This document shows positions 26,219 through 57,318 of a DNA stretch of 64,000 nt, one piece after another (within the stretch, counting starts at the first letter, position 1; the number at the start of each line of letters is the position of its first letter). Source of the stretch: a bacterium (GTDB lineage: Bacteria; Margulisbacteria; WOR-1; O2-12-FULL-45-9; XYB2-FULL-48-7); NCBI GenBank assembly GCA_043812655.1, contig JBDRLW010000003.1:32001-96000 (forward strand). The letters are read 5' to 3'. The translations under genes were made by a program, and so were the position numbers. Under the pieces are notes generated by a model, which did not search any database, was not told the origin of the DNA, and worked only from the letters and a program-made list of their open reading frames with translations.

Positions 26219-27190
26219 ATGGCAAAAATAAATAATAACAAACCAAAACTCCTCCTCGAAAAACCGCTGGAGGAGCTTTACGCTAAGATCGAAAAATTAA
26301 AAGTCCTTCAGGAATCCGGCAAAATGGACATGACCGAGGAGATCAAAATGCTGGAGAAAAGGATCGAAAATACCCGTAAAGAAATATTCTCCAAGATTAC
26401 GCCGATCCAATGCGTCCAAGTTGCCCGTTACATTATGAGACCGACTACGCTTGATTATATCGATCTGCTATTTAAAGACTTTGTTGAACTCCATGGCGAT
26501 CGTAATTTTTCTGACGATCCAGCTTTAGTTACCGGGATCGCCAATCTCGATGGCCGCTCGGTCATTGTGATGGGCCACCAAAAAGGCCATTCAACCAAAG
26601 AAAATATTGCCCGCAATTTTGGGATGGCAAATCCTGAAGGCTACCGCAAAGCCCTCCGGCTAATGCGCCTGGCCGAGCGTTACAACAAGCCGATCATTTC
26701 TTTTGTTGATACGCCGGGAGCATATTGCGGTTTAGGCGCTGAAGAACGTGGCCAAGCCGAAGCGATCGCTAAAAACCTTCGGGAAATGGCAGAGCTGACT
26801 GTCCCCTTTATTTCCATTATTACTGGTGAGGGTGGCTCTGGAGGGGCGCTAGGAATAGCGATGGGAAATAAAGTTTTGATGCTTGAATATTCAATTTATT
26901 CGGTGATCTCCCCCGAAGGCTGCGCCTCGATCCTTTTCCGTGACGCATCACGCGCTAATGAAGCGGCTAATGCGATGAGGATCACCGCGCCAGACCTGCT
27001 TGAACTCGGGGTAATTGATGAAGTGATCAAAGAACCGATCGGCGGCGCGCACAACGATCCGGCCTTTATGGCCAAAAATATCAAGGCCGCCATTTTAAAA
27101 CATCTAGAACCGCTTCTCTCCCTCTCTCACCGCGAGCTAATAGCCGACCGGTACAACAAATACCGGAAGATGGGAATTTTTAACGGATAA
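26219..27190 (+). CDS. accA: Acetyl-CoA carboxylase carboxyltransferase alpha subunit
   Basis: ELHGDRNFSDD, GYRKALRLM, GEGGSGGALG, YSVISPEG. Confidence 0.95.
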   Translation: MAKINNNKPKLLLEKPLEELYAKIEKLKVLQESGKMDMTEEIKMLEKRIENTRKEIFSKITPIQCVQVARYIMRPTTLDYIDLLFKDFVELHGDRNFSDDPALVTGIANLDGRSVIVMGHQKGHSTKENIARNFGMANPEGYRKALRLMRLAERYNKPIISFVDTPGAYCGLGAEERGQAEAIAKNLREMAELTVPFISIITGEGGSGGALGIAMGNKVLMLEYSIYSVISPEGCASILFRDASRANEAANAMRITAPDLLELGVIDEVIKEPIGGAHNDPAFMAKNIKAAILKHLEPLLSLSHRELIADRYNKYRKMGIFNG

Positions 27191-27202
27191 ATATTTGGTA
27201 AA

Positions 27203-27604
27203 TGCCGCGGAGAGGAATTGAACCTCCATGGGTTTAACCCCGCTAGCTCCTGAAGTCCCGCTTCATTAATATTTTATCATAATGACTTGCGGGATCCCGA
27301 CGATTACATTATTATCATATCTTAATGACCGTCGGGACTAGTGCGCCCGCCTTCGGCGGGTAAATCTGCCAGATAATAAACTTGCTTCTTCAAATGCCCA
27401 GGAGAGGAATTGAACCTCCATGGGTTTAACCCCGCTAGCTCCTGAAGCTAGTGCGTCTGCCAGTTCCGCCACCTGGGCATTTGAAGGTGGAAATATTCTC
27501 TCATAAATTGACTGCTGATTCAAGATATTTTTCTGAAAAAAAAGGAGATAGTTCCGCTTTACCCGCCACAGGTGGGTTTACCCGCCGCAGGCGGGCATAG
27601 CGGC
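27203..27604 (-). pseudogene. Fragmented outer tRNA-Leu(CAG) copy enclosing the intact gene
   Basis: tRNA segments 27596-27604, 27551-27557, 27365-27372, 27338-27345 and 27203-27255 in correct order, separated by hairpin inserts. Confidence 0.75.
27395..27478 (-). tRNA. tRNA-Leu(CAG), CCA not encoded
   Basis: GCCCAGG/CCTGGGC acceptor stem, ctagc-ttCAGga-gctag anticodon arm, long variable arm, GGTTCAATTCC. Confidence 0.93.
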
Positions 27605-27610
27605 ATAAAA

Positions 27611-27695: not shown

Positions 27696-27760
27696 ATTTC
27701 GACTCCGTCTCGACTCACTGCGTTCGCTCGACGTCGCTCAATGCCGAGAGAAGCCGAGAC

Positions 27761-27815
27761 ATTCCACTTTACCCGCCTGCCTACCGGCAGGCAAGCCGTA
27801 GGCGGGCACAGCGGC
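27761..27815 (-). pseudogene. Extra 5' fragment of tRNA-Leu(CAA) interrupted by a CCCGCC-GGCGGGTAAA insert
   Basis: Minus strand gccgctgtg [39-nt insert 27768-27806] gtggaat matches the first 16 nt of tRNA-Leu(CAA). Confidence 0.7.
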
Positions 27816-33833: not shown

Positions 33834-34137
33834 GCCGCGGTGGCCCGCCTACGGCTTGCCTGCCGGTAGGCAGGCGGGTAAATGGAACTGGCTGGCACTT
33901 ACATCCCGAAGTTGAATGCAATTTTTTGCCGAGGTGGTGGAACTGGCAGACACACCAGCTTGAGGGGCTGGCGCCGTTAAAAGCGTAGGAGTTCAAATCT
34001 CCTCCTCGGCATAAAAATTGCTTTCAAATTCAGAGATGGAGGTTCTCCCGACGGACATTATAATAGAATAATGATGAAATCGTCGGGATCCCGATTTCCG
34101 CCAAAGGCGGAACATCGGGAAAGTCCTCTCCGCGGCA
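33834..34137 (+). pseudogene. Outer tRNA-Leu shell (5' and 3' ends) interrupted by hairpins and enclosing tRNA-Leu(GAG)
   Basis: gccgcggtgg[insert]tggaactggc ... ggaggttc[two hairpins]aagtcctctccgcggca; perfect GCCGCGG/CCGCGGC acceptor stem. Confidence 0.75.
33928..34011 (+). tRNA. tRNA-Leu(GAG), CCA not encoded
   Basis: GCCGAGG/CCTCGGC acceptor stem, ccagc-ttGAGgg-gctgg, GTTCAAATC. Confidence 0.93.
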
Positions 34138-48753: not shown

Positions 48754-50841
48754 ATGGCAGCACCTGGACTTGACCTAAGGGATATCCGCAAACTTTTCTC
48801 GACCGGCGATTTCATGGTTGCCGGCGTTCTTGTTGTCATTATCGCTTTGATGCTGGTTCCCCTTCCCCCTTTCTTCCTGGATATTTTACTCACGATGAAC
48901 ATTGCTTTTTCACTTGTCATATTACTAGTGGCAATGTATCTAAAAGAGCCGCTGGAATTCGCCTCCTTCCCCTCGATCCTCTTGATAGTTACGGTCTTGC
49001 GCTTGGCCCTTAACATCGCGGCTTCCCGGCTCATCCTTTCTAATGCTTATGCCGGCCAAGTGGTCGAGGCTTTCGGTAATTTCGTCGTCGGCGGAAATTA
49101 TATCGTTGGCACGATCATTTTTATCATCATTACGATCGTTAATTTCGTTGTCATCACCAAAGGTTCGGAGCGGGTAGCCGAAGTTGCCGCCCGGTTCACC
49201 TTGGACGCGATGCCCGGCAAACAAATGTCGATCGATGCCGATCTCAACGCCGGACTGATCGACGCGACCGAAGCCCGGGGAAGACGGCGGAAGATAGAAC
49301 AAGAGGCAACTTTCTTTGGCAGTATGGACGGTGCCAATAAATTTGTCCGTGGAGACTCTATTGCCGGCATCATTATCGTCATAGTAAATATTTTGGGTGG
49401 TGTCCTGGTCGGCTGGCTTCAGCTAGGGATGGCTCCGCTGGAAGCCCTCTCAATCTATGCCCTGTTGACCATTGGCGCCGGGCTGATCGCCCAGGTTACC
49501 GCCCTGCTTATCTCGATCGGCACCGGTTTAGTCATTACCAAATCTGCCTCGGAGCTTAGCCTTGGCAACGACGTCTCCAAACAACTTTTTGCCCAGCCAA
49601 GAGCTTTCGCTTTCGTCTGTCTGATCCTTGGCATCTTTGCGATGATCCCGGGATTGCCAACTGTCCCCTTTTTAATAATGGCGTCAGCTTCCGGCGCCTT
49701 AGCGCTTGTCTTACTGCGCGCCCAATCGGCGTCAGAAGAAGCAAAGGTCGTGACCGAAGAGGTCTCCGCCAAAGATGTCCTGAAAAAACCGGAAAGCATC
49801 CTTGGCACGCTCGGGCTTGATCCGCTCTCCCTAAAAGCGGGGCGTAATTTGATCCCGCTGATCGACCCTGGCCAAAAAGGCCCGCTGCTTGAGCGGATCA
49901 CTTTGATCCGTTACAACATCGGCCAGGAGCTTGGGTTTGTCATCCCCGGAGTCCGGGTCATGGATGACCTGAGCCTGCCGCCGCAGCAGTATACCGTTGA
50001 GATCCGAGGGACCAAAGTCTCGAACGGTGAAGCTTATGTCGGCAGCCATCTAATTGATATGTCGCTCGCCCAAGCCAAGGCCAAAAAACTTTCTGGCATT
50101 GAAGCCAAGGACCCATTATCAAATGACCTGGTCACTTGGGTGCCGGATGATCTTCTTCCCCAACTGCAAAAGCTGGGGATCACCGCTAAGCCACCAGTTG
50201 ATGTCATCTCCGACCATTTCTCGGAGATCGTAAAGCGTTACGCCGACGAAATAATGACGAGGCAAAATGTCCAGTCGCTCATTGAATTAGTTAAAAATAA
50301 TAATGCCGCGATCGTCCGCGAGCTTATCCCCGACCTCTTATCTCTCGGCCAAGTGCATAAAGTCTTGCAGCTCTTGGTCAGGGAGCGCGTTTCTATCCGC
50401 GACCTGTCAACGATCCTTGAACGTTTAGCTGATTATGCCCATCTTTCAAGAGATATTAATATTTTGGCCGAATACGTCAGGCAATCGCTGGCAAGGCAAA
50501 TATGCGAAGCTTACACGGATAAGAAAGGGGTTATTACGGTCGTCACCATCGATCCGGGCTTGGAAGAAACCTTGATCGGTTCGATCCACCAATCAGAGTA
50601 TGGTTCTTTCTTGGCGGTCGATCCCAATGTCGGCGAAAAGATATTGGTCCAAATTTCCGGCCACATCCAAAACTTTAAACGCTTAAAACTTAAGCCGGTC
50701 ATCCTTTGCTCCCCAAGATTACGGCCGCACTTTAAACGCTTTATAGAAAGAAGCTATCCTGACCTGGCCGTCCTTTCTTATAATGAAATTGTCCCGCAAG
50801 TCAAAGTCCAATCGATCGGCATGATCGGGGTCGAGTCATAA
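48754..50841 (+). CDS. flhA: Export apparatus protein FlhA
   Basis: RVAEVAARFTLDAMPGKQMSIDADL, GSMDGANKFVRGD, VLSYNEI. Confidence 0.95.
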   Translation: MAAPGLDLRDIRKLFSTGDFMVAGVLVVIIALMLVPLPPFFLDILLTMNIAFSLVILLVAMYLKEPLEFASFPSILLIVTVLRLALNIAASRLILSNAYAGQVVEAFGNFVVGGNYIVGTIIFIIITIVNFVVITKGSERVAEVAARFTLDAMPGKQMSIDADLNAGLIDATEARGRRRKIEQEATFFGSMDGANKFVRGDSIAGIIIVIVNILGGVLVGWLQLGMAPLEALSIYALLTIGAGLIAQVTALLISIGTGLVITKSASELSLGNDVSKQLFAQPRAFAFVCLILGIFAMIPGLPTVPFLIMASASGALALVLLRAQSASEEAKVVTEEVSAKDVLKKPESILGTLGLDPLSLKAGRNLIPLIDPGQKGPLLERITLIRYNIGQELGFVIPGVRVMDDLSLPPQQYTVEIRGTKVSNGEAYVGSHLIDMSLAQAKAKKLSGIEAKDPLSNDLVTWVPDDLLPQLQKLGITAKPPVDVISDHFSEIVKRYADEIMTRQNVQSLIELVKNNNAAIVRELIPDLLSLGQVHKVLQLLVRERVSIRDLSTILERLADYAHLSRDINILAEYVRQSLARQICEAYTDKKGVITVVTIDPGLEETLIGSIHQSEYGSFLAVDPNVGEKILVQISGHIQNFKRLKLKPVILCSPRLRPHFKRFIERSYPDLAVLSYNEIVPQVKVQSIGMIGVES

Positions 50842-50844
50842 ATG

Positions 50845-50873
50845 TTTACAATTCCCCCCGCCTTTGCTACAAT
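50845..50873 (+). promoter_or_regulatory. Sigma70 promoter for the small ORF plus sigma gene
   Basis: TTTACA-17 nt-TACAAT with extended TG. Confidence 0.6.
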
Positions 50874-50882
50874 ATCAAGGCC

Positions 50883-51092
50883 TTGACAATACGACGGATA
50901 GACCAATCAAAATCAAAAGAGTTACGGAAGATCGGCCGCGCCGGCATAGAAGATGCCCCGCCAGCCGGTATCTCTCCAGTTTTACGGGCTTCCTGGCGCT
51001 TTGCCAGGGACACAGCCGAAAGATTTAATAAGGAACTGCTAAACGACCGGACAAAAGAATTCCTTAAAAGTTTAGCTAGAAAGTTCTCATGA
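50883..51092 (+). CDS. Small basic hypothetical protein coupled to the sigma gene
   Basis: 69 aa, TTG start after the promoter, ATGA overlap with the sigma gene. Confidence 0.5.
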   Translation: MTIRRIDQSKSKELRKIGRAGIEDAPPAGISPVLRASWRFARDTAERFNKELLNDRTKEFLKSLARKFS

Positions 51093-51679
51093 CCACGCGC
51101 CGTGAAGTTGAAGACCGCATAGTCTCCCTTATCCGCGAACAATTCCTAAAGCATAGCGATGAAACGCTTGAAAAATATAAGAACCAGATCAATGCTACCG
51201 TTAGATGGTATGTCTCCACCCTGCCCCGCCATATCGCTTCTTCGGAGGCGCATGACCTGGAATCGGAAGCCAAGATCGCGTTCGTCGAATGTTTAAAGAC
51301 CTGGGACCCGCGGAAAGGCAATTTGTGGACGTATGTCTCGGTCCGCCTCAAAGGCTCGATGCAGGATTACCTCCGCAAGCGCGGCGGCGACCCGGTGGCC
51401 GGCCTGTACGAATTCGTCGCTTCGGCCGCCAATGTCTACATGGCTTTTAACAAGAAGAATATTGTCCATGAAGAAGTCGATAAGCTCTCAAACCTGGATT
51501 CGGTCATGAAAGACTTTTCAAACAAAGAAAAAACCGTGCTGGAAAATTATTATCAGAATGACAAGACCTTTAAAGAGATAGGCAAAGAGATCGGCCTTTC
51601 CGAATCGCAAGTTTCGCGCATTTGCAAAGAAGCCACTCTCAAATTGAAAAAAGGTTTAAAAGCCGAAGACGAAGAATAA
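51089..51679 (+). CDS. FliA/WhiG-like sigma factor, short (regions 2 and 4)
   Basis: WDPRKGNLWTYVSVRLKGSMQDYLRK (region 2); TFKEIGKEIGLSESQVSRI (region 4). Confidence 0.8.
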   Translation: MTTRREVEDRIVSLIREQFLKHSDETLEKYKNQINATVRWYVSTLPRHIASSEAHDLESEAKIAFVECLKTWDPRKGNLWTYVSVRLKGSMQDYLRKRGGDPVAGLYEFVASAANVYMAFNKKNIVHEEVDKLSNLDSVMKDFSNKEKTVLENYYQNDKTFKEIGKEIGLSESQVSRICKEATLKLKKGLKAEDEE

Positions 51680-51708
51680 TTGGGGCCCCCAGGATCAGAG
51701 GCCCCAAT
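51679..51708. terminator. Hairpin between convergent genes
   Basis: attggggcc...ggccccaat. Confidence 0.45.
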
Positions 51709-51725
51709 CGCTAGTCACTCCCCAG

Positions 51726-51950
51726 TTATTTCACGCAATGAGTTTTACTTTTGTGACAATTTTTTGGACAACCGCAATCACGGCATTTTTTAGCAGGATC
51801 GCATTTGGTTTTGTCACAAGTTTGGCAGAGCTTCACTGGACAATTGCCGGCCTGGCATTTGGCAAGAACTGGTTCTTTTACCGCGGCCAGAGCAACGCTT
51901 CCGCCTAAGATCAAAGCCAAGAGAAGTGAAGACAATATCGTTTTTTTCAT
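51726..51950 (-). CDS. Small secreted Cys-rich protein
   Basis: Signal peptide, 10 Cys in the mature part, AGGAGG RBS. Confidence 0.7.
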   Translation of the reverse strand: MKKTILSSLLLALILGGSVALAAVKEPVLAKCQAGNCPVKLCQTCDKTKCDPAKKCRDCGCPKNCHKSKTHCVK

Positions 51951-52000
51951 AAGAGACCTCCTAAATTTTATTTGATCAGGATCAGTACAAATGGCTGGTC

Positions 52001-52312
52001 TTAAGCTAAAGGCGGGCCATTGGGAGGGTGCAAGATCTTATTTTGCACCGAAGAATAGAGAGGAGCTATTTCTCTGACTTTAAAAAGAGCCGAAATTTTT
52101 AAGATCGGCATGGCTTTATTCGAAGCGGCAAGGCTAGTTAAATGCAGCGTTGGCGTTTCAAATTGGCTATCGGCTACTTTATCTTGCGCCGACTCCATCG
52201 AGCATTGGTTGGTTTCATGATGGCAACAATTACAATGGGTTTGCGTATAACAGACCGGCTGGCTAATTAAAAAAAACGGCAAAAGATAGGCAAGGCACAT
52301 CTTTTTAAGCAT
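52001..52312 (-). CDS. Small Cys/His-rich hypothetical protein
   Basis: HCNCCHH motif and C-terminal HPPNGPP. Confidence 0.5.
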   Translation of the reverse strand: MLKKMCLAYLLPFFLISQPVCYTQTHCNCCHHETNQCSMESAQDKVADSQFETPTLHLTSLAASNKAMPILKISALFKVREIAPLYSSVQNKILHPPNGPPLA

Positions 52313-52431
52313 GTTATAAGTGTAGGCATTAAAACTGATAAAAGCAAGGGTTTACAGACAAATCTTGAGTTGTTTAATGATGATCAATGTTGTCGCTGCC
52401 AATCTTTTAGTGTAAAATGATGACTTATCAT

Positions 52432-52504
52432 GCGGGAGTAGCTCAGCTGGTAGAGCTTCTGCTTCCCAAGCAGACGGTCGCGGGTTCGAACCCCGTCTCC
52501 CGCT
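52432..52504 (+). tRNA. tRNA-Gly(CCC)
   Basis: GCGGGAG/CTCCCGC, tctgc-ttCCCaa-gcaga, GGTTCGAACCC. Confidence 0.94.
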
Positions 52505-52512
52505 TTTTTATT

Positions 52513-52583
52513 GGCGGCATGGCCGAGTGGTTAGGCAGCGGTCTGCAAAACCGTTTACTCCAGTTCAAATCTGGATGCCGCCT
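52513..52583 (+). tRNA. tRNA-Cys(GCA)
   Basis: GGCGGCA/TGCCGCC, gcggt-ctGCAaa-accgt, GTTCAAATC. Confidence 0.94.
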
Positions 52584-52606
52584 TGTGTTATAATTATTGT
52601 ATTGAT

Positions 52607-52975
52607 GCGCGCTTAGTCCCGACGATTCGACTTGCGTCGAATGTCGGGATCCCGATTTCCGCTGTAAGCGGAACATCGGGACTCAGCTGGTTAGAGTACT
52701 TGTCCCGATGGTCATTAGAATAGATAGTAATGGAATCATCGGGATCCCGAGGCTGAAGCTACCATTATTGCGCGCGCGCTTAGCTCAGCTGGTTAGAGTA
52801 CTTGCTTGACAGGCAAGGGGTCACAGGTTCGAAACCTGTAGCGCGCAATAATGGATTAGTTTACTCGGGACTTGACAGGTGCCTTGACTTAGCTCGGCAC
52901 AGGCAAGGGGTCACAGGTTCGCCTGCCCCGAGCGAGGAACGAAGTGACGAGTCGAGGGGAAACCTGTAGCGCGCA
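52607..52975 (+). pseudogene. Outer tRNA-Val(GAC) split into five segments by four inserts, one carrying the intact gene
   Basis: Segments 52607-16, 52682-702, 52871-79, 52904-21 and 52960-75 concatenate to a sequence identical to 52774-52847. Confidence 0.9.
52774..52847 (+). tRNA. tRNA-Val(GAC), CCA not encoded
   Basis: GCGCGCT/AGCGCGC, cttgc-ttGACag-gcaag, GGTTCGAAACC. Confidence 0.94.
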
Positions 52976-52981
52976 TTTTTA

Positions 52982-53585
52982 TTACCCCGCTCGCTGGAAG
53001 GCGTAAAACTCTCCACCATTAAAACAACCCCTATCTGTAAAATCTCTTGGTGGGAAAAGTCGGTCATTACTGCAACGACAAGAAATTATCCAGGTCCCCG
53101 GTTTTAATTCCAATAAAGCTTTTCCCATTAAGGGAAAAAAATCATGGCAAAAAGGCAAAAAAAAAGGAAACCACATTAAAAGTACAAAGGTCCGCTTCTA
53201 AGAAATCTTGGTTACGAAACGTAATATTGCGGACGTCAAAGCTAGCCCTGATCTCTTCGGCCGCATTGTAAATGTCAAGATCAATTTCAAATCCGGTCAC
53301 TCTCATAAACCGGGTCGCGGCATAAAAGGCATCCAAACCAAAACCGGTCCCTAAAATCCCTAAAGATTGACCGGTCCCTAGTCCTAATTCGTCAACATAA
53401 GTCACAAAATGGTCGACCGGCATCGCCCAGTAAATCGCGTCCCGCGGCCCCGCTGTCCCAAAAACTCGATTATCAAGCGAGGGGTTAAAACCACTTTTTT
53501 GATAGACATAATCACGCTCGGCGTTATGGACCGCTTGTTTGATCGCCGGTAATTTTTTCCTGTCCAATAATCTCCCAACTCTCAT
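52982..53585 (-). pseudogene. Class I SAM methyltransferase frameshifted at a T9 tract
   Basis: LGTGFG, GFEID, NQDFL in 53142-53585; continuation ELKPGTWIIS in another frame after the A9 run at 53157-53165. Confidence 0.7.
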
Positions 53586-53591
53586 GATTTT

Positions 53592-53618
53592 TTATCGGTG
53601 GTTTCTTTTGGGGATTTC
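53592..53618 (-). promoter_or_regulatory. Sigma28/FliA-like promoter
   Basis: Minus strand GAAA-N15-ACCGATAA, 6 nt before the ATG. Confidence 0.55.
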
Positions 53619-53689
53619 AAGTAATATTACTTTTTACAATAGAAGATAGAATTTTTTTGGCAGATGTTCTATAATTCACTCAAGTTATA

Positions 53690-55069
53690 ATGAGTTTAGA
53701 AGCAATTCGACAAATTATTTTGATGACCGGCTGGCCGATCCTCGCGACCGGCAGTGTTTTATTATTTTTCCTCGCTTATAAATTTTATTTGGATGTGAAC
53801 CGGGTCGCCCTGGGCAAATTGGTCATGATTATGACCTCGGGCTGGCTGGTCACAATGTATTCCCTGGGCGTTGTCGCGACTTTAGCCATGTTTCTTGATG
53901 TCAGGCAAGGGGTCTTTGTCGTTTTCCCCATCTTTTTAGTCTGGGCGATAACCATGGTCCTGCTTTCGGCTAATGTATTCCAATGGTCGCGCAAAACCGT
54001 TGATATCAATAATTTCTATCAGGACATTGAAAGAAAATACCAATTAATATTTGATATTTCTCCCGAAGCAATCCTGCTTTTGGATGTTAACGGCAATGTT
54101 ATCACTGCCAATAAGCGCTTGGAAGAATGGGTCAATTATCGGACTGAAAACATTCTTGGGTCAAAATTAACCGGCCTTAATTTTATTACCGAAAAAAGCC
54201 GCGAACTGATCAATCAAAACTTTAACCGCCGGTTAAAAGGCGAAATCCTTCAGCCCTACCAAATAGAGATCATTGCCCGTGACGGCTCGCATAAATACTG
54301 GCGGGTGATCGACACTATGGTCCATAATGATAAAGGACAGCCGCTTAATAGCCTGACCATGATAAGCGATGTCACCAAACAGGTGGAGATCGAAAAATTG
54401 CATGATGACCTCATTCACATGATCGTGCACGATCTTAAAAATCCTTTGTCCGCTATCTCCGGCACAGCTGATCTATTCCTTTCTGGTACCGCTTGCCAAT
54501 TTGATGAGAAGCAAAAGAACCTGGTCGAAAATATCGATTTCGCCGCCAAAAAGATGACCAACCTGGTCATGGACCTATTACAGGTCAAACAAACAGAAGA
54601 AAATAAACTAGTCTTAAATAAAACTACTTTCCCTGCCACAGAGCTGCTGCAAAATATTAGTTGGCTCAAACAATATTCGGAAAAACAAGAACGGCGGTTA
54701 AAGGCCGAGATTCCTGCCGATCTAATGATCACCGCTGATAAAAATCTTGTGGGCCGTATCTTGGAGAATTTGCTTTCCAATGCCATTAAACATACTCCAG
54801 CCAACGGGGAAATAAATCTTCGGATCAAAAAAGACGGTGAACGGATTAACTTTGAGGTCCAAGATGCTGGCGAAGGCATCCCCAAAGAATATCTGGACAG
54901 AATTTTTAACAAATTTTTCAAGGTCGAAGGCCAGATCCAGTCAACTAAAATTGACACTGGCTTAGGCTTGACCTTTTGTAAAATGGCCGTGGAGGCCCAT
55001 GGCGGAGAGATTGGAGTGGCCAGTGAGCCTGGCAAGGGATCGCGTTTTTACTTCTATCTGCCGGTTTGA
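53690..55069 (+). CDS. Membrane PAS-domain sensor histidine kinase
   Basis: N-terminal TMs, PAS domain, HDLKNPL H-box, NAIKH, DAGEGI, GLGL. Confidence 0.92.
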   Translation: MSLEAIRQIILMTGWPILATGSVLLFFLAYKFYLDVNRVALGKLVMIMTSGWLVTMYSLGVVATLAMFLDVRQGVFVVFPIFLVWAITMVLLSANVFQWSRKTVDINNFYQDIERKYQLIFDISPEAILLLDVNGNVITANKRLEEWVNYRTENILGSKLTGLNFITEKSRELINQNFNRRLKGEILQPYQIEIIARDGSHKYWRVIDTMVHNDKGQPLNSLTMISDVTKQVEIEKLHDDLIHMIVHDLKNPLSAISGTADLFLSGTACQFDEKQKNLVENIDFAAKKMTNLVMDLLQVKQTEENKLVLNKTTFPATELLQNISWLKQYSEKQERRLKAEIPADLMITADKNLVGRILENLLSNAIKHTPANGEINLRIKKDGERINFEVQDAGEGIPKEYLDRIFNKFFKVEGQIQSTKIDTGLGLTFCKMAVEAHGGEIGVASEPGKGSRFYFYLPV

Positions 55070-55105
55070 CTCCGCTTCTCCCCTTCTGCTAAAATGATAG
55101 TTGTA

Positions 55106-55909
55106 ATGCCCATTCAGGAACAGTGCCGAATAATTGAGCAGAAAAAAGTCGGGCCAAGGCATTTCAAATTAACCCTTCTCTCGCCAAACATTACCTCACA
55201 AGCTAAACCCGGACAATTTGTAGAGGTTAAATGTTCTGATAATTATGAGCCCCTCCTCCGTCGCCCGATCAGCCTCCACAAGGTCAACTTAATTGATGGC
55301 ACTTTTGAACTTTTATATGAAGTGGTTGGCATTGGCACTGAATTATTAAGCAAATACAAAGCTGACCAAGAACTTGATATCTTGGGCCCGCTCGGTACCG
55401 GTTTTAAGATCGACCCAGCCAAAAAAGTCCACGTTCTAATTGGCGGCGGCATGGGCGTTGCGCCTTTGCTAGCTCTTGCAACGCAAATTACAAACAACAA
55501 ATTACAAATCACAAATGCCACTTACATTCTTCTAGGCGCAAGATCAAAAGACTTTGTCATAGAAGAAAAAACGTTCCGCAGTATGACAGACCAAATATTG
55601 GTTTCTACCGACGACGGAACTTACGGCAAAAAGGGTTTTATTTCGGACATCTTACTTGATTTACTCAACAACACCCTAACCCCTACCACCTACAACCTAA
55701 CCACTCTCTACGCCTGCGGCCCCAAGCCGATGCTCCGTGCCGTAGCCGAGATCGCCTACCAGAAAAAGATCGATTGCCAACTTTCGATGGAAGAGCGGAT
55801 GGCTTGCGGGATCGGTGCCTGTAAAGGGTGCGCGGTTAAGACCACCAATGGTTATAAAATGGCTTGCAAAGATGGCCCGGTTTTCGACTCGAAAGAGATA
55901 ATTTGGTGA
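55106..55909 (+). CDS. pyrK: Dihydroorotate dehydrogenase electron-transfer subunit
   Basis: PGQFV, LRRPIS, GGGMGVAP, MACGIGACKGC, CKDGPVF. Confidence 0.92.
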   Translation: MPIQEQCRIIEQKKVGPRHFKLTLLSPNITSQAKPGQFVEVKCSDNYEPLLRRPISLHKVNLIDGTFELLYEVVGIGTELLSKYKADQELDILGPLGTGFKIDPAKKVHVLIGGGMGVAPLLALATQITNNKLQITNATYILLGARSKDFVIEEKTFRSMTDQILVSTDDGTYGKKGFISDILLDLLNNTLTPTTYNLTTLYACGPKPMLRAVAEIAYQKKIDCQLSMEERMACGIGACKGCAVKTTNGYKMACKDGPVFDSKEIIW

Positions 55910-56419
55910 ACCTGAGAATGAATTCTCGGTTCCATTTAACGGATGCAAAAATAAATTTTCGCATCCTAGGAAACGATAAAAATGCTCTATCATTATAATT
56001 TCAGGACTTATTTAAGGAAACCGACCTTGGAAGATAAGGAAATAAGGTTATTTCTAAAAGAAATTTTCCTTGAAATATCCAAAGAAAAAGGTTTTGATAT
56101 TATCGAATGCGAAATACTATCGGAACATGTCCATATTTTAATTGAACACAGCTATACCTTAAGCACTTCGCAAGTCATGAAATTTTTGAAAGGTATTTCC
56201 GCAAGGAGACTTTTCCAGCAATATCCTACTAATAGGTTTGAACACAAAAAACTTTGGGGAAGATCATTTTTCGCCAAAAAGATCACTAATGAAGAAAAAG
56301 ATAATGTTATTGATTATATTAGGAACCAAAGAAATGAAGAAGGTATTGATAAAAGATTCTAAGGGTGCGAGAATTTATTCTCGCGGGCCCCTGAATAACC
56401 GCGAATTCATTCGCAGGTT
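55908..56419 (+). mobile_element. IS200/IS605-type (Y1 HUH) element without tnpB, bounded by hairpins, between pyrK and pyrD
   Basis: tnpA flanked by inner hairpins (55941-55966, 56362-56390) and outer inverted GAACC REPs (55908-55935, 56397-56419). Confidence 0.8.
55982..56362 (+). CDS. tnpA: IS200-like Y1 transposase
   Basis: EHVHIL (HUH), KGISAR, LWGRSFF, YIRNQ catalytic Tyr. Confidence 0.9.
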   Translation: MLYHYNFRTYLRKPTLEDKEIRLFLKEIFLEISKEKGFDIIECEILSEHVHILIEHSYTLSTSQVMKFLKGISARRLFQQYPTNRFEHKKLWGRSFFAKKITNEEKDNVIDYIRNQRNEEGIDKRF

Positions 56420-56433
56420 GGAGGGTTTTGAAC

Positions 56434-57318
56434 ATGCTTAATATAGAATTGTTAGGGCTTAAGCTAAAAAATCCGATCATGGTCGCTTCGGGGACCTTTG
56501 GTTGGGGAAAAGAATACGCGGATTATATTGATTTAAATCAACTTGGCGCAATCATCACCAAGAGCATTACGCTTCAAGCTCGAGCCGGCAACCCACCACC
56601 CCGGATAGTTGAAACGCCAAGCGGGATGCTTAATTCGATCGGCCTGCAAAACGATGGCATAGAATCGTTCATAAAAAACGACCTCCCCTTCCTGGCTAAG
56701 TTTGAAACACCAACCATTGTGAATATCGCCGGCGAGTCAGCAAATGAATATTCTAAACTCGCGCAGCTATTAGATAAAGAAAACACCGTTAAAGCGATCG
56801 AAATAAATATTTCTTGCCCTAATGTAAAGAAAGGCGGCATGTCTTTTGGTGTCGACGCCAAATTAACAAAAGAAGTTGTTTCCGCCGCGCGCAAAGCAAC
56901 TAAAAAGCCGCTGATCGCCAAGTTAACTCCTAACGTAACGGATATCACCGTGATCGCCAAAGCGGCCGTTGATGGCGGCGCTGACGCCCTCTCCCTCATC
57001 AATACCGTAGTCGGCATGGCGATCGATATTGAAACTGGAAAATCAAGGCTTGGGATGTTAACCGGCGGATTATCCGGCCCGGCGATCAAACCGATCGCGG
57101 TCAGGATGGTTTATGAAGCCGCTCACGCGGTGAAAGTGCCGATTATCGGGATCGGCGGGATCATGTCCGGGAGCGACGCGGTCGAGTTTTTCTTAGCCGG
57201 TGCTAAGGCGGTTCAAATCGGCACCTGCAATTTTGTTGATACCAAGGCTCCAATTCGTATCATTCAAGAGGTAGCCAATTATGTACATCGACACCCACGC
57301 GCACTTAACTTTTCCTGA
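56434..57318 (+). CDS. pyrD: Dihydroorotate dehydrogenase (family 1B)
   Basis: NPIMVASGTFG, NISCPN, AKLTPN, GGLSGPAIKP. Confidence 0.95.
   Translation: MLNIELLGLKLKNPIMVASGTFGWGKEYADYIDLNQLGAIITKSITLQARAGNPPPRIVETPSGMLNSIGLQNDGIESFIKNDLPFLAKFETPTIVNIAGESANEYSKLAQLLDKENTVKAIEINISCPNVKKGGMSFGVDAKLTKEVVSAARKATKKPLIAKLTPNVTDITVIAKAAVDGGADALSLINTVVGMAIDIETGKSRLGMLTGGLSGPAIKPIAVRMVYEAAHAVKVPIIGIGGIMSGSDAVEFFLAGAKAVQIGTCNFVDTKAPIRIIQEVANYVHRHPRALNFS

Follow-up and report, generated by a model that had tools for sequence, protein, structure and literature searches.

The tRNA-Val(GAC) locus

We analysed a 64,000-nt stretch of contig JBDRLW010000003.1 (positions 32,001 to 96,000, forward strand; here called the window) from assembly GCA_043812655.1, the 46-contig, 93% complete draft genome of a WOR-1 bacterium, in which the genes for tRNA-Gly(CCC), tRNA-Cys(GCA) and tRNA-Val(GAC) follow one another. 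The intact tRNA-Val(GAC) gene, called by both ARAGORN and Rfam, lies inside an interrupted copy of itself. The five pieces of the interrupted copy (52607-52616, 52682-52702, 52871-52879, 52904-52921 and 52960-52975) join to 74 nt that agree with the intact gene at 74/74 positions. Here the interrupted copy is called the shell, the intact one the inner copy or cargo, and the whole arrangement the nest. The assembly (1.62 Mb, 45 tRNA genes) contains no other tRNA-Val(GAC) gene. The parts of the nest, in window coordinates, are:

52586-52594, + strand: TGTTATAAT, an extended -10-like box read directly from the sequence, 12 nt 5' of the outer shell; putative promoter
52607-52616, + strand: shell piece 1 (tRNA nt 1-10), from alignment to the intact tRNA
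52617-52681, + strand: insert 1, a double hairpin, each half TCCCGA...TCGGGA, between nt 10 and 11, with the target bases unchanged
52682-52702, + strand: shell piece 2 (nt 11-31)
52703-52744, + strand: first part of the cassette, a 42-nt hairpin with an AT-rich loop (type A)
52745-52773, + strand: second part of the cassette, left arm of the carrier hairpin (TCCCGAG ... CCATTAT plus TGCGC)
52774-52847, + strand: intact tRNA-Val(GAC), the cargo (65.8 bits)
52848-52870, + strand: right arm of the carrier hairpin (ATAATGG ... CTCGGGA)
52871-52879, + strand: shell piece 3 (nt 32-40)
52880-52903, + strand: insert 3, 24 nt, not a hairpin, with ACAGG repeats at its borders
52904-52921, + strand: shell piece 4 (nt 41-58)
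52922-52959, + strand: insert 4, 38 nt, in the T loop, an arm of the GAGCGA.../...GAGTCGAGG repeat
52960-52975, + strand: shell piece 5 (nt 59-74), with a T run behind it

The four inserts measure 65, 168, 24 and 38 nt and interrupt the shell in the D arm (after nt 10), in the two strands of the anticodon stem (5' strand, after nt 31; 3' strand, after nt 40) and in the T loop (after nt 58), respectively. Insert 1 consists of hairpins of 33 and 32 nt (z of the DNA fold -5.2 and -7.6). Insert 2, hereafter the cassette, consists of the 42-nt hairpin (z -3.5) and a 126-nt hairpin tipped by the tRNA (z -6.7); its 168 bp part the resident gene between nt 31 and 32 (ACTTG/CTTGAC) with no base gained or lost. 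Inserts 3 and 4 fold no better than shuffled sequences (z 0.15 and 0.06) and are not hairpins on their own, the latter being a single arm of a distinct palindromic repeat family.

An earlier note on this DNA, made from the letters alone, had described the five-piece copy as identical to the intact gene and the TCCCG inserts as neither adding nor removing tRNA bases. Both descriptions hold, and with the insert coordinates it gave the pieces join flush. The inner tRNA does sit at the tip of its hairpin, albeit not directly between CCATTAT and ATAATGG as the note had it, since five bases (TGCGC) separate the CCATTAT arm from the tRNA 5' end. The duplicated ACAGG of insert 3 is present at its borders; insert 4, described there as similar to repetitive extragenic palindromic (REP) elements, is one arm of a different palindromic family and does not form a hairpin alone. 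The -10-like box, TGTTATAAT, is likewise where it had been placed, but a consensus scan for promoters and terminators lists nothing within the nest, and the box is passed over because no -35 element matches.

The same locus in related genomes

The Val(GAC) locus was fetched from 31 genomes, including the present one (G000), and the gene is present in 30 of them. The genomes compared are metagenome-assembled drafts; the locus classes were assigned by manual reading, and as the genomes are kin and not independent the counts are descriptive only. A plain gene following the Gly and Cys genes occurs in 16, the nest or parts of it in 10, and four loci are ambiguous. The cassette is found in G000, G006, G019, G020 and G021, which belong to two families. 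In each case a right arm of 22-24 nt leads back into the shell at nt 32/33, and the insertion site is therefore the same. Further alleles lie on metagenome contigs (L157-L163).

The secondary inserts vary among alleles, in agreement with the idea in the earlier note that a broken shell collects further insertions. The D-arm double hairpin sits after nt 10 in two alleles (G000, L160) and after nt 15 in a third (L161); G006 lacks it, and G020 has a double hairpin in the T loop. A homologous insert 3 is found at the equal position in G000, G006, G012 and G021, and G012 has an insert similar to insert 4 of G000 in the same place. The shell is partly replaced in L161 and G021.

Importantly, the inner copy and the shell are not always the same allele. 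In G020 (the same as L157 and L162) they differ at 6/74 positions, through compensatory exchange of a single pair in the acceptor stem and of two pairs in the T stem. G019 shows a single compensatory pair in the T stem and G021 differences in the 3' strand of the acceptor. In L160 the differences are confined to one acceptor pair and one base of the D loop, both copies having the unusual T arm found in that lineage. The shells carry the allele typical of their families, while the cargo of G020, G021 and L160 has the acceptor GGGCGC, which is also found in the plain gene of G024. Such compensatory swaps indicate that the inner copy came with the cassette, and as both alleles are well paired, each would have evolved as a working tRNA before the two were joined. 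Cargo and shell are identical in G000, G006 and L161. Judged from the sequences, L160 looks like a partly homogenised state, and G000, G006 and L161 look either fully homogenised or loaded from the same lineage.

A different arrangement is seen in another Val(GAC) lineage on metagenome contigs (L158, L159, L164 and L165), where a 16-nt mini hairpin, TCCCGAC..GTCGGGA, replaces the anticodon-loop region in upstream 5' copies. It shares the left junction ACTTG/, and in L165 the unit is present three times in tandem.

Pieces of tRNA and hairpins at other loci of the genome

When the genome was scanned for collinear tRNA fragments, exact self-pieces of at least 10 nt were found within 600 nt of 14/45 tRNA genes, vs 1.9 per pass for shuffled tRNAs. 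At a threshold of at least 14 nt, nine of the 45 genes remain: Ser(TGA), Leu(CAG), Val(GAC), Met, Arg(CCG), Pro(GGG), Tyr, Glu(TTC) and Pro(CGG). A second full nest is formed by tRNA-Met on contig C8, where four shell pieces match the inner gene at 74/76 nt and the inner gene is also enclosed in a TCCCG...CGGGA hairpin adjoining a type-A hairpin. Val and this Met are the only two of the 45 tRNA genes enclosed by such arms.

Genome-wide there are 25 TCCCG...CGGGA hairpins with a stem of at least 7, and 18 of these have a tRNA gene no more than about 310 nt away (manual count), although tRNA neighbourhoods make up 1-2% of the genome. Those near tRNAs sit within extra pieces of the adjoining tRNA. 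Two partial forms recur: an upstream 5' piece followed by hairpins, 7 nt, a spacer and the intact gene, or the intact gene followed by a spacer and a 3' piece split by hairpins. At Arg(CCG) on contig C9 the unit of tRNA piece, hairpins and spacer is repeated in tandem. Two such loci lie in the window:

27190-27479, - strand: intact tRNA-Leu(CAG) at 27394-27479 with a partial shell behind it, split by one other hairpin and a TCCCG double hairpin
34034-34137, + strand: T-arm/acceptor piece of a Leu tRNA, the T loop split by a double hairpin (34046-34120), 22 nt behind tRNA-Leu(GAG)

The 53-nt 3' shell piece of Leu(CAG) is identical to the intact gene at 51/53 positions, with both differences in the acceptor strand. 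Within this genome, hairpin copies from unlinked loci are 86-91% similar; relatives of insert 1 (87-91%) occur at the Arg(CCG) and Leu(GAG) loci, and kin of the type-A hairpin at Arg(CCG) and Pro(GGG).

Other repeats were noted at or near tRNA loci. Runs of a TTTACCCGCC-N4-GGCGGG hairpin surround two Leu tRNA genes (window 27500-27610 and 27700-27800); this is a third type of small palindromic repeat at tRNA loci, and one copy also splits the Leu(CAG) shell. The repeat family GAGCGA.../...GAGTCGAGG is found in the RNase P RNA gene (RF00010, 234 bits; contig C4:17566-18052, L136 267-753), where it makes up two additional hairpins, each about 64-71 nt long, that extend the tips of P3 and P12, and similar repeats flank tRNA-Glu(TTC) and tRNA-Gln(TTG). 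The tRNA list of the assembly includes Arg(GCG) and lacks Arg(ACG); Ile(GAT) and Ala(TGC) were not found in it and probably belong to an unassembled rRNA operon.

The double hairpin across genomes

The double-hairpin pattern is present in 21/41 related genomes, with 10/14 and 10/16 in two families and 0/10 in the remaining families of the class; a reversed control pattern gave 0. A public scan of one genome per species returned at least 116 double-hairpin loci, and the counts below refer to the matches listed. The records are titled Omnitrophota (including a complete genome), several Patescibacteria groups, WOR-1/Saganbacteria, Margulisiibacteriota, Planctomycetota and others. A tRNA gene lies within the flanks of 45/116 loci.

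The listed loci and seven regions of the present genome gave a set of 127 double hairpins, 52 of which have an intact tRNA in the locus. For 25 of the 52, the 9+9 nt flanking the double hairpin are contiguous in that tRNA (two mismatches at most), which points to clean insertion with neither duplication nor loss. At these 25 junctions the left flank varies (TAG, TTAG, CAG, CTTG, GTTC and others) and target duplication is absent (25/25). The sites, in the D arm, the anticodon arm and the T loop, cluster after nt 10-16, 31-41 and 57-63 of the tRNA, and the elements occur in either orientation relative to it. Removal of the hairpins in silico restores a whole tRNA at 4/116 listed loci, and all four have an intact twin.

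A fixed bulge signature, with a 5' G in the first hairpin and a 3' C in the second, was considered as a mark of the family and rejected, as it is present in both hairpins of only 12/115 pairs. Viral contigs gave two pattern matches, neither of them a proper hairpin pair and neither with a tRNA or GIY-YIG gene. The pattern also captures a pair of 37+38 nt, TCCCGAATG...CTTCGGGA followed by TCCCGAAG...CATTCGGGA, whose outer halves are mutually complementary and which recurs in Omnitrophota and Planctomycetota records (L013, L017, L019, L022, L024, L027, L041, L043 and many more), mostly with no tRNA nearby, L017 being among the exceptions. Going by its sequence, this is probably a separate repeat family.

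Small GIY-YIG nucleases and Y1 transposases

The genome encodes six small GIY-YIG proteins, of which one has 176 aa and the other five 80-99 aa; Pfam recognises no domain in them besides GIY-YIG. All six genes adjoin tRNA genes, and two of them, at Arg(CCG) and Pro(GGG), share the locus with TCCCGA hairpins and tRNA pieces. In relatives a tRNA gene was found within 150 nt at 13/20 sampled small GIY-YIG loci. Conversely, 10/125 double-hairpin loci among those listed, from several phyla, have a piece of a GIY-YIG gene within 300-700 nt. In G017 (L185) a GIY-YIG gene and an intact tRNA-Pro lie together inside a four-piece tRNA-Pro shell, the D and T loops of which are split by double hairpins. 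The nearest solved structures to these proteins are UPF0213 and SLX1, and no NCBIfam family scored above its cut-off for them.

At the Tyr and Ser(TGA) loci (C30:57494-57883 and C1:8510-8923) a 5' tRNA piece split by other palindromes is followed by a GIY-YIG open reading frame (ORF) and the intact tRNA. The ORF at the Tyr locus terminates at a TAG that is nt 8-10 of the tRNA.

Three genes for Y1 HUH transposases are present, one, IS200-like, in the window (55979-56329, + strand; Pfam Y1_Tnp, 90.7 bits) and one each on contigs C5 and C10. A Y1 transposase was tried as the mobiliser of the hairpins, given that one copy lies about 3 kb from the nest, and rejected because all three copies are flanked by different repeats of their own: the surroundings of the gene in the window (55900-56450) contain GGAACC...GGTTCC palindromes and no TCCCGA hairpin, and like palindromes occur at C5 and C10. 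To judge from these flanks, the Y1 gene and its GGAACC palindromes look like a RAYT/REP-type pair distinct from the TCCCGA hairpins.

A proposed cassette that carries a replacement tRNA

We interpret the locus as a resident tRNA-Val(GAC) gene invaded by a non-coding, selfish cassette of 168 bp that carries a replacement tRNA, a reading to which we assign a probability of roughly 0.6. It starts from what is observed: the anatomy of the nest, its presence and absence in relatives, the differing alleles of cargo and shell, and the clean insertion of double hairpins, across several phyla, at recurring tRNA positions. The first of the two explanations offered in the earlier note, a hairpin element bringing a spare copy of the gene it breaks, is supported by recurrence at the same site, from plain genes elsewhere and from inner alleles that differ and yet are well paired.

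In the proposed sequence of events, the small DNA cassette inserts between nt 31 and 32 of the resident gene and kills it, and the cargo copy then supplies the tRNA, with the upstream TGTTATAAT or the AT-rich hairpin as its possible promoter. Since the cargo would now be the source of the tRNA, the host could not lose the cassette save by exact excision. The dead shell retains conserved tRNA motifs and would for that reason be a safe landing place for small elements that target such motifs; the D-arm double hairpin and inserts 3 and 4 would be later landings of this kind. Gene conversion would keep inner copy and shell alike in some lineages. The small single-domain GIY-YIG nucleases encoded near tRNA genes may act in trans by recognising and cutting the hairpins, with host repair or ligation completing the insertion, and the Val cassette would be a nuclease-less derivative. 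We infer the loss of function of the shell, the expression of the inner copy and the gene conversion, and more weakly the dependence of movement on GIY-YIG nucleases acting in trans. The constant company of an intact twin would be explained by the lethality of an insertion into a sole tRNA gene, so that only cargo-bearing cassettes, and hairpins in dead pieces, persist.

A wider proposal, which we put forward tentatively and at somewhat less than even odds, is that the nests represent a new class of mobile DNA. A carrier bounded by hairpins, with a complete essential tRNA gene as cargo, would enter the resident gene at mid-length, take its place with no splicing involved, and be moved as folded single-stranded DNA by miniature GIY-YIG nucleases, and the accompanying double hairpins would home to tRNA motifs and survive only in dead shells. 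Such elements would spread among phyla with small genomes and drive the turnover of tRNA alleles.

Several results weigh against the cassette and the proposed role of the nucleases. The identity of cargo and shell in G000, G006 and L161 fits local duplication as well as it fits conversion. Between G000 and G006 the arm sequences are strongly diverged, in spite of 92-95% agreement in the first hairpin and in insert 3. Window 51000-55000, up to about 2 kb to each side of the Val nest, contains neither a GIY-YIG gene nor a remnant of one. All 41 relatives have small GIY-YIG genes, vs 21/41 for the double hairpin, so there is no presence/absence link, and the co-location of the two could simply reflect the association of both with tRNA genes. 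Moreover, the inner tRNA has the same target as the shell, and a nuclease that reads tRNA-internal sequence alone should cut the cargo too. Finally, no movement, excision product or circle was observed; the best public sequencing run covers 12% of the sampled locus words, and the run contigs span mainly tRNA bodies, the single RNA run covering tRNA bodies only. In one low-depth contig of run X4, from a relative, the upstream spacer passes directly into at least 30 nt of the 5' part of the tRNA without interruption, which would fit an allele without insert 1. The exact 29-nt flank of the nest has 0 matches in metagenome contigs.

If the proposed invasion is right, it adds a third mode by which selfish DNA can live in an essential, conserved gene, namely by bringing a spare copy, the other two being self-removal by splicing (introns and inteins) and residence next to the target (free-standing homing genes). 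It would also explain why roughly one tRNA locus in five is littered with tRNA pieces in this streamlined genome, and offer a route to the horizontal replacement of tRNA alleles. The shells would confound tRNA annotation in uncultivated lineages, and small nucleases or hairpins with very precise targets in tRNA genes could become useful as tools.

Alternative explanations

The alternative that survives best, though we consider it unlikely, is that there is no mobile cassette and that the hairpins are hot spots where slippage, template switching or break repair duplicates parts of tRNA genes locally. The tandem units at Arg(CCG) and in L165 are of the kind expected from such events, as are partial copies with duplicated flanking sequence (L014, L018), and the three loci with identical cargo and shell are in line with it. 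Local events would not readily account, on the other hand, for cargo and shell alleles that differ by compensatory pairs (G020, G019, G021 and L160), for an insertion site and arm length common to two families, for similar hairpins at unlinked loci, or for hairpin ends that are identical in several phyla.

It is distinctly improbable that the hairpins and pieces are functional parts of a tRNA operon, conserved for processing, termination or regulation. In its favour, the stems flush with the tRNA vary in sequence and keep their pairing (CCATTAT/ATAATGG in G000, TCATCAT/ATGATGA in G006), the first (type-A) hairpin is identical at 40/42 positions (counted by hand) between the same two genomes, which represent different genera, and the AT-rich loops resemble -10 boxes. 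Against this, 16/30 relatives make the same tRNA from a plain gene, the sets of inserts vary between close alleles, the elements occur in either orientation relative to the tRNA, and none of them matches an Rfam family.

Still less probable is the second explanation of the earlier note, that the inserts are removable, as RNA introns or at the DNA level, from an outer gene still in use, the inner copy being a passenger. Removal of the four Val inserts does leave a perfect tRNA, identity of shell and cargo persists in three lineages, and a related repeat is tolerated within the presumably functional single-copy RNase P RNA gene. However, only the 4/116 listed loci mentioned above restore a whole tRNA, each with its twin; shells at Pro(CGG), Arg(CCG), Leu(CAG), L161 and G021 lack ends or arms; and the hairpins abut the exon pieces directly and show no bulge-helix-bulge geometry. 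Neither RtcB nor the tRNA-intron endonuclease EndA was matched in the 93%-complete genome, and a permissive Rfam scan of 50000-56000 returned the three tRNAs, one weak unrelated match and no intron family. On the strength of the scan, the 4/116 loci and the lack of RtcB and EndA matches, the reading of the inserts as introns or intervening sequences was rejected.

That the nest is an artefact of assembling repeated tRNA sequence can hardly be maintained, even with a 46-contig draft, as other genomes and metagenome contigs, assembled independently and among them contigs 708 kb and 35 kb long, have the same architecture, short contigs from two unrelated public runs bridge the inner junctions (52682-52803 and 52809-52921, with 1-2 differences), and the repeated pieces, at 9-23 nt, are below the usual assembly word size.

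Comparison with known systems

The full-text literature searched, in which most subscription journals are not included, gave no description of a tRNA gene nested in its own copy or of hairpin or GIY-YIG cassettes splitting bacterial tRNA genes. The element family is thus apparently undescribed, in agreement with what the earlier note had said of the architecture.

Elements with a tyrosine integrase bring a copy of the part they displace and so restore the tRNA gene they interrupt, and a fragment of the tRNA stays behind as a scar. Such tRNA fragments are taken up in 10.1101/2022.07.05.498093. They resemble the present cassette in that the element itself repairs the gene it breaks, but they duplicate the 3' part only, are kilobases long and encode the integrase. 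Here the whole gene is carried within 168 bp, the insertion is in mid-gene, and shell pieces flank it on both sides. The nest has flhA, a sigma factor gene and a histidine kinase gene as neighbours, and no integrase was found among five neighbouring ORFs compared with Pfam, three of which match other families and two none. The distinction from att-site duplications drawn in the earlier note is thereby upheld. The same goes for bacterial group I tRNA introns, as the Rfam scan described above detected no group I ribozyme core and no other intron family.

REP, BIME and REPIN sequences with RAYT, and the PATEs derived from IS200/IS605, are short, often paired hairpins that insert without target duplication; elements of this group are also mentioned in PMC11893778. 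Recognition of hairpins in single strands would fit the anatomy seen here. Those elements, however, are not known to have tRNA cargo. In this genome the Y1 genes are flanked by GGAACC...GGTTCC instead of TCCCGA, and the TCCCGA double hairpins seem to have no single fixed tetranucleotide as target.

Archaeal tRNA genes may contain several introns at non-canonical positions, which transpose between tRNA genes (Fujishima et al. 2010, as cited in PMC10714607), and several short insertions at non-canonical positions of one tRNA gene are what the shell displays. The archaeal introns are spliced by EndA at a bulge-helix-bulge in sole functional genes, whereas here there is no bulge-helix-bulge and no EndA or RtcB match, and the interrupted copies are mostly partial and always accompanied by a twin. 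For each of REP/RAYT systems, integrase islands, group I introns and protein-spliced introns, a defining feature was looked for and is lacking here.

SegB is a free-standing GIY-YIG homing endonuclease encoded in the tRNA gene cluster of phage T4 (PMC2330249). As in the present genome, its gene adjoins tRNA genes, and it is presumably inherited by cutting naive alleles that are then repaired by copying. The Seg genes, however, are intergenic and their products have DNA-binding domains, and neither a split tRNA nor a duplicate carried along is known from them. The Val cassette, for its part, has no nuclease gene (none in window 51000-55000), although the related nest L185 has one.

Nearest in spirit, by analogy, is the Ssn family with its NTS repeats, in which SsnA, a single-domain GIY-YIG single-stranded DNA nuclease of 94 aa, goes with NTS/SRM hairpin repeats (Chenal et al. 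2025, PMC11893778). The SRM search pattern as published is not enriched in this genome: it has four matches, vs 2-12 in five letter-shuffled genomes, and none near the six GIY-YIG genes, the Val nest or the hairpins. That main text contains no mention of tRNA and describes no tRNA nesting. What the two systems have in common is very small single-domain GIY-YIG proteins (80-99 aa here) linked to many short hairpin repeats, a TCCCG...CGGGA core within the NTS that resembles the hairpins described here, and, in some of the present units (L185), a layout of repeat, gene and repeat.

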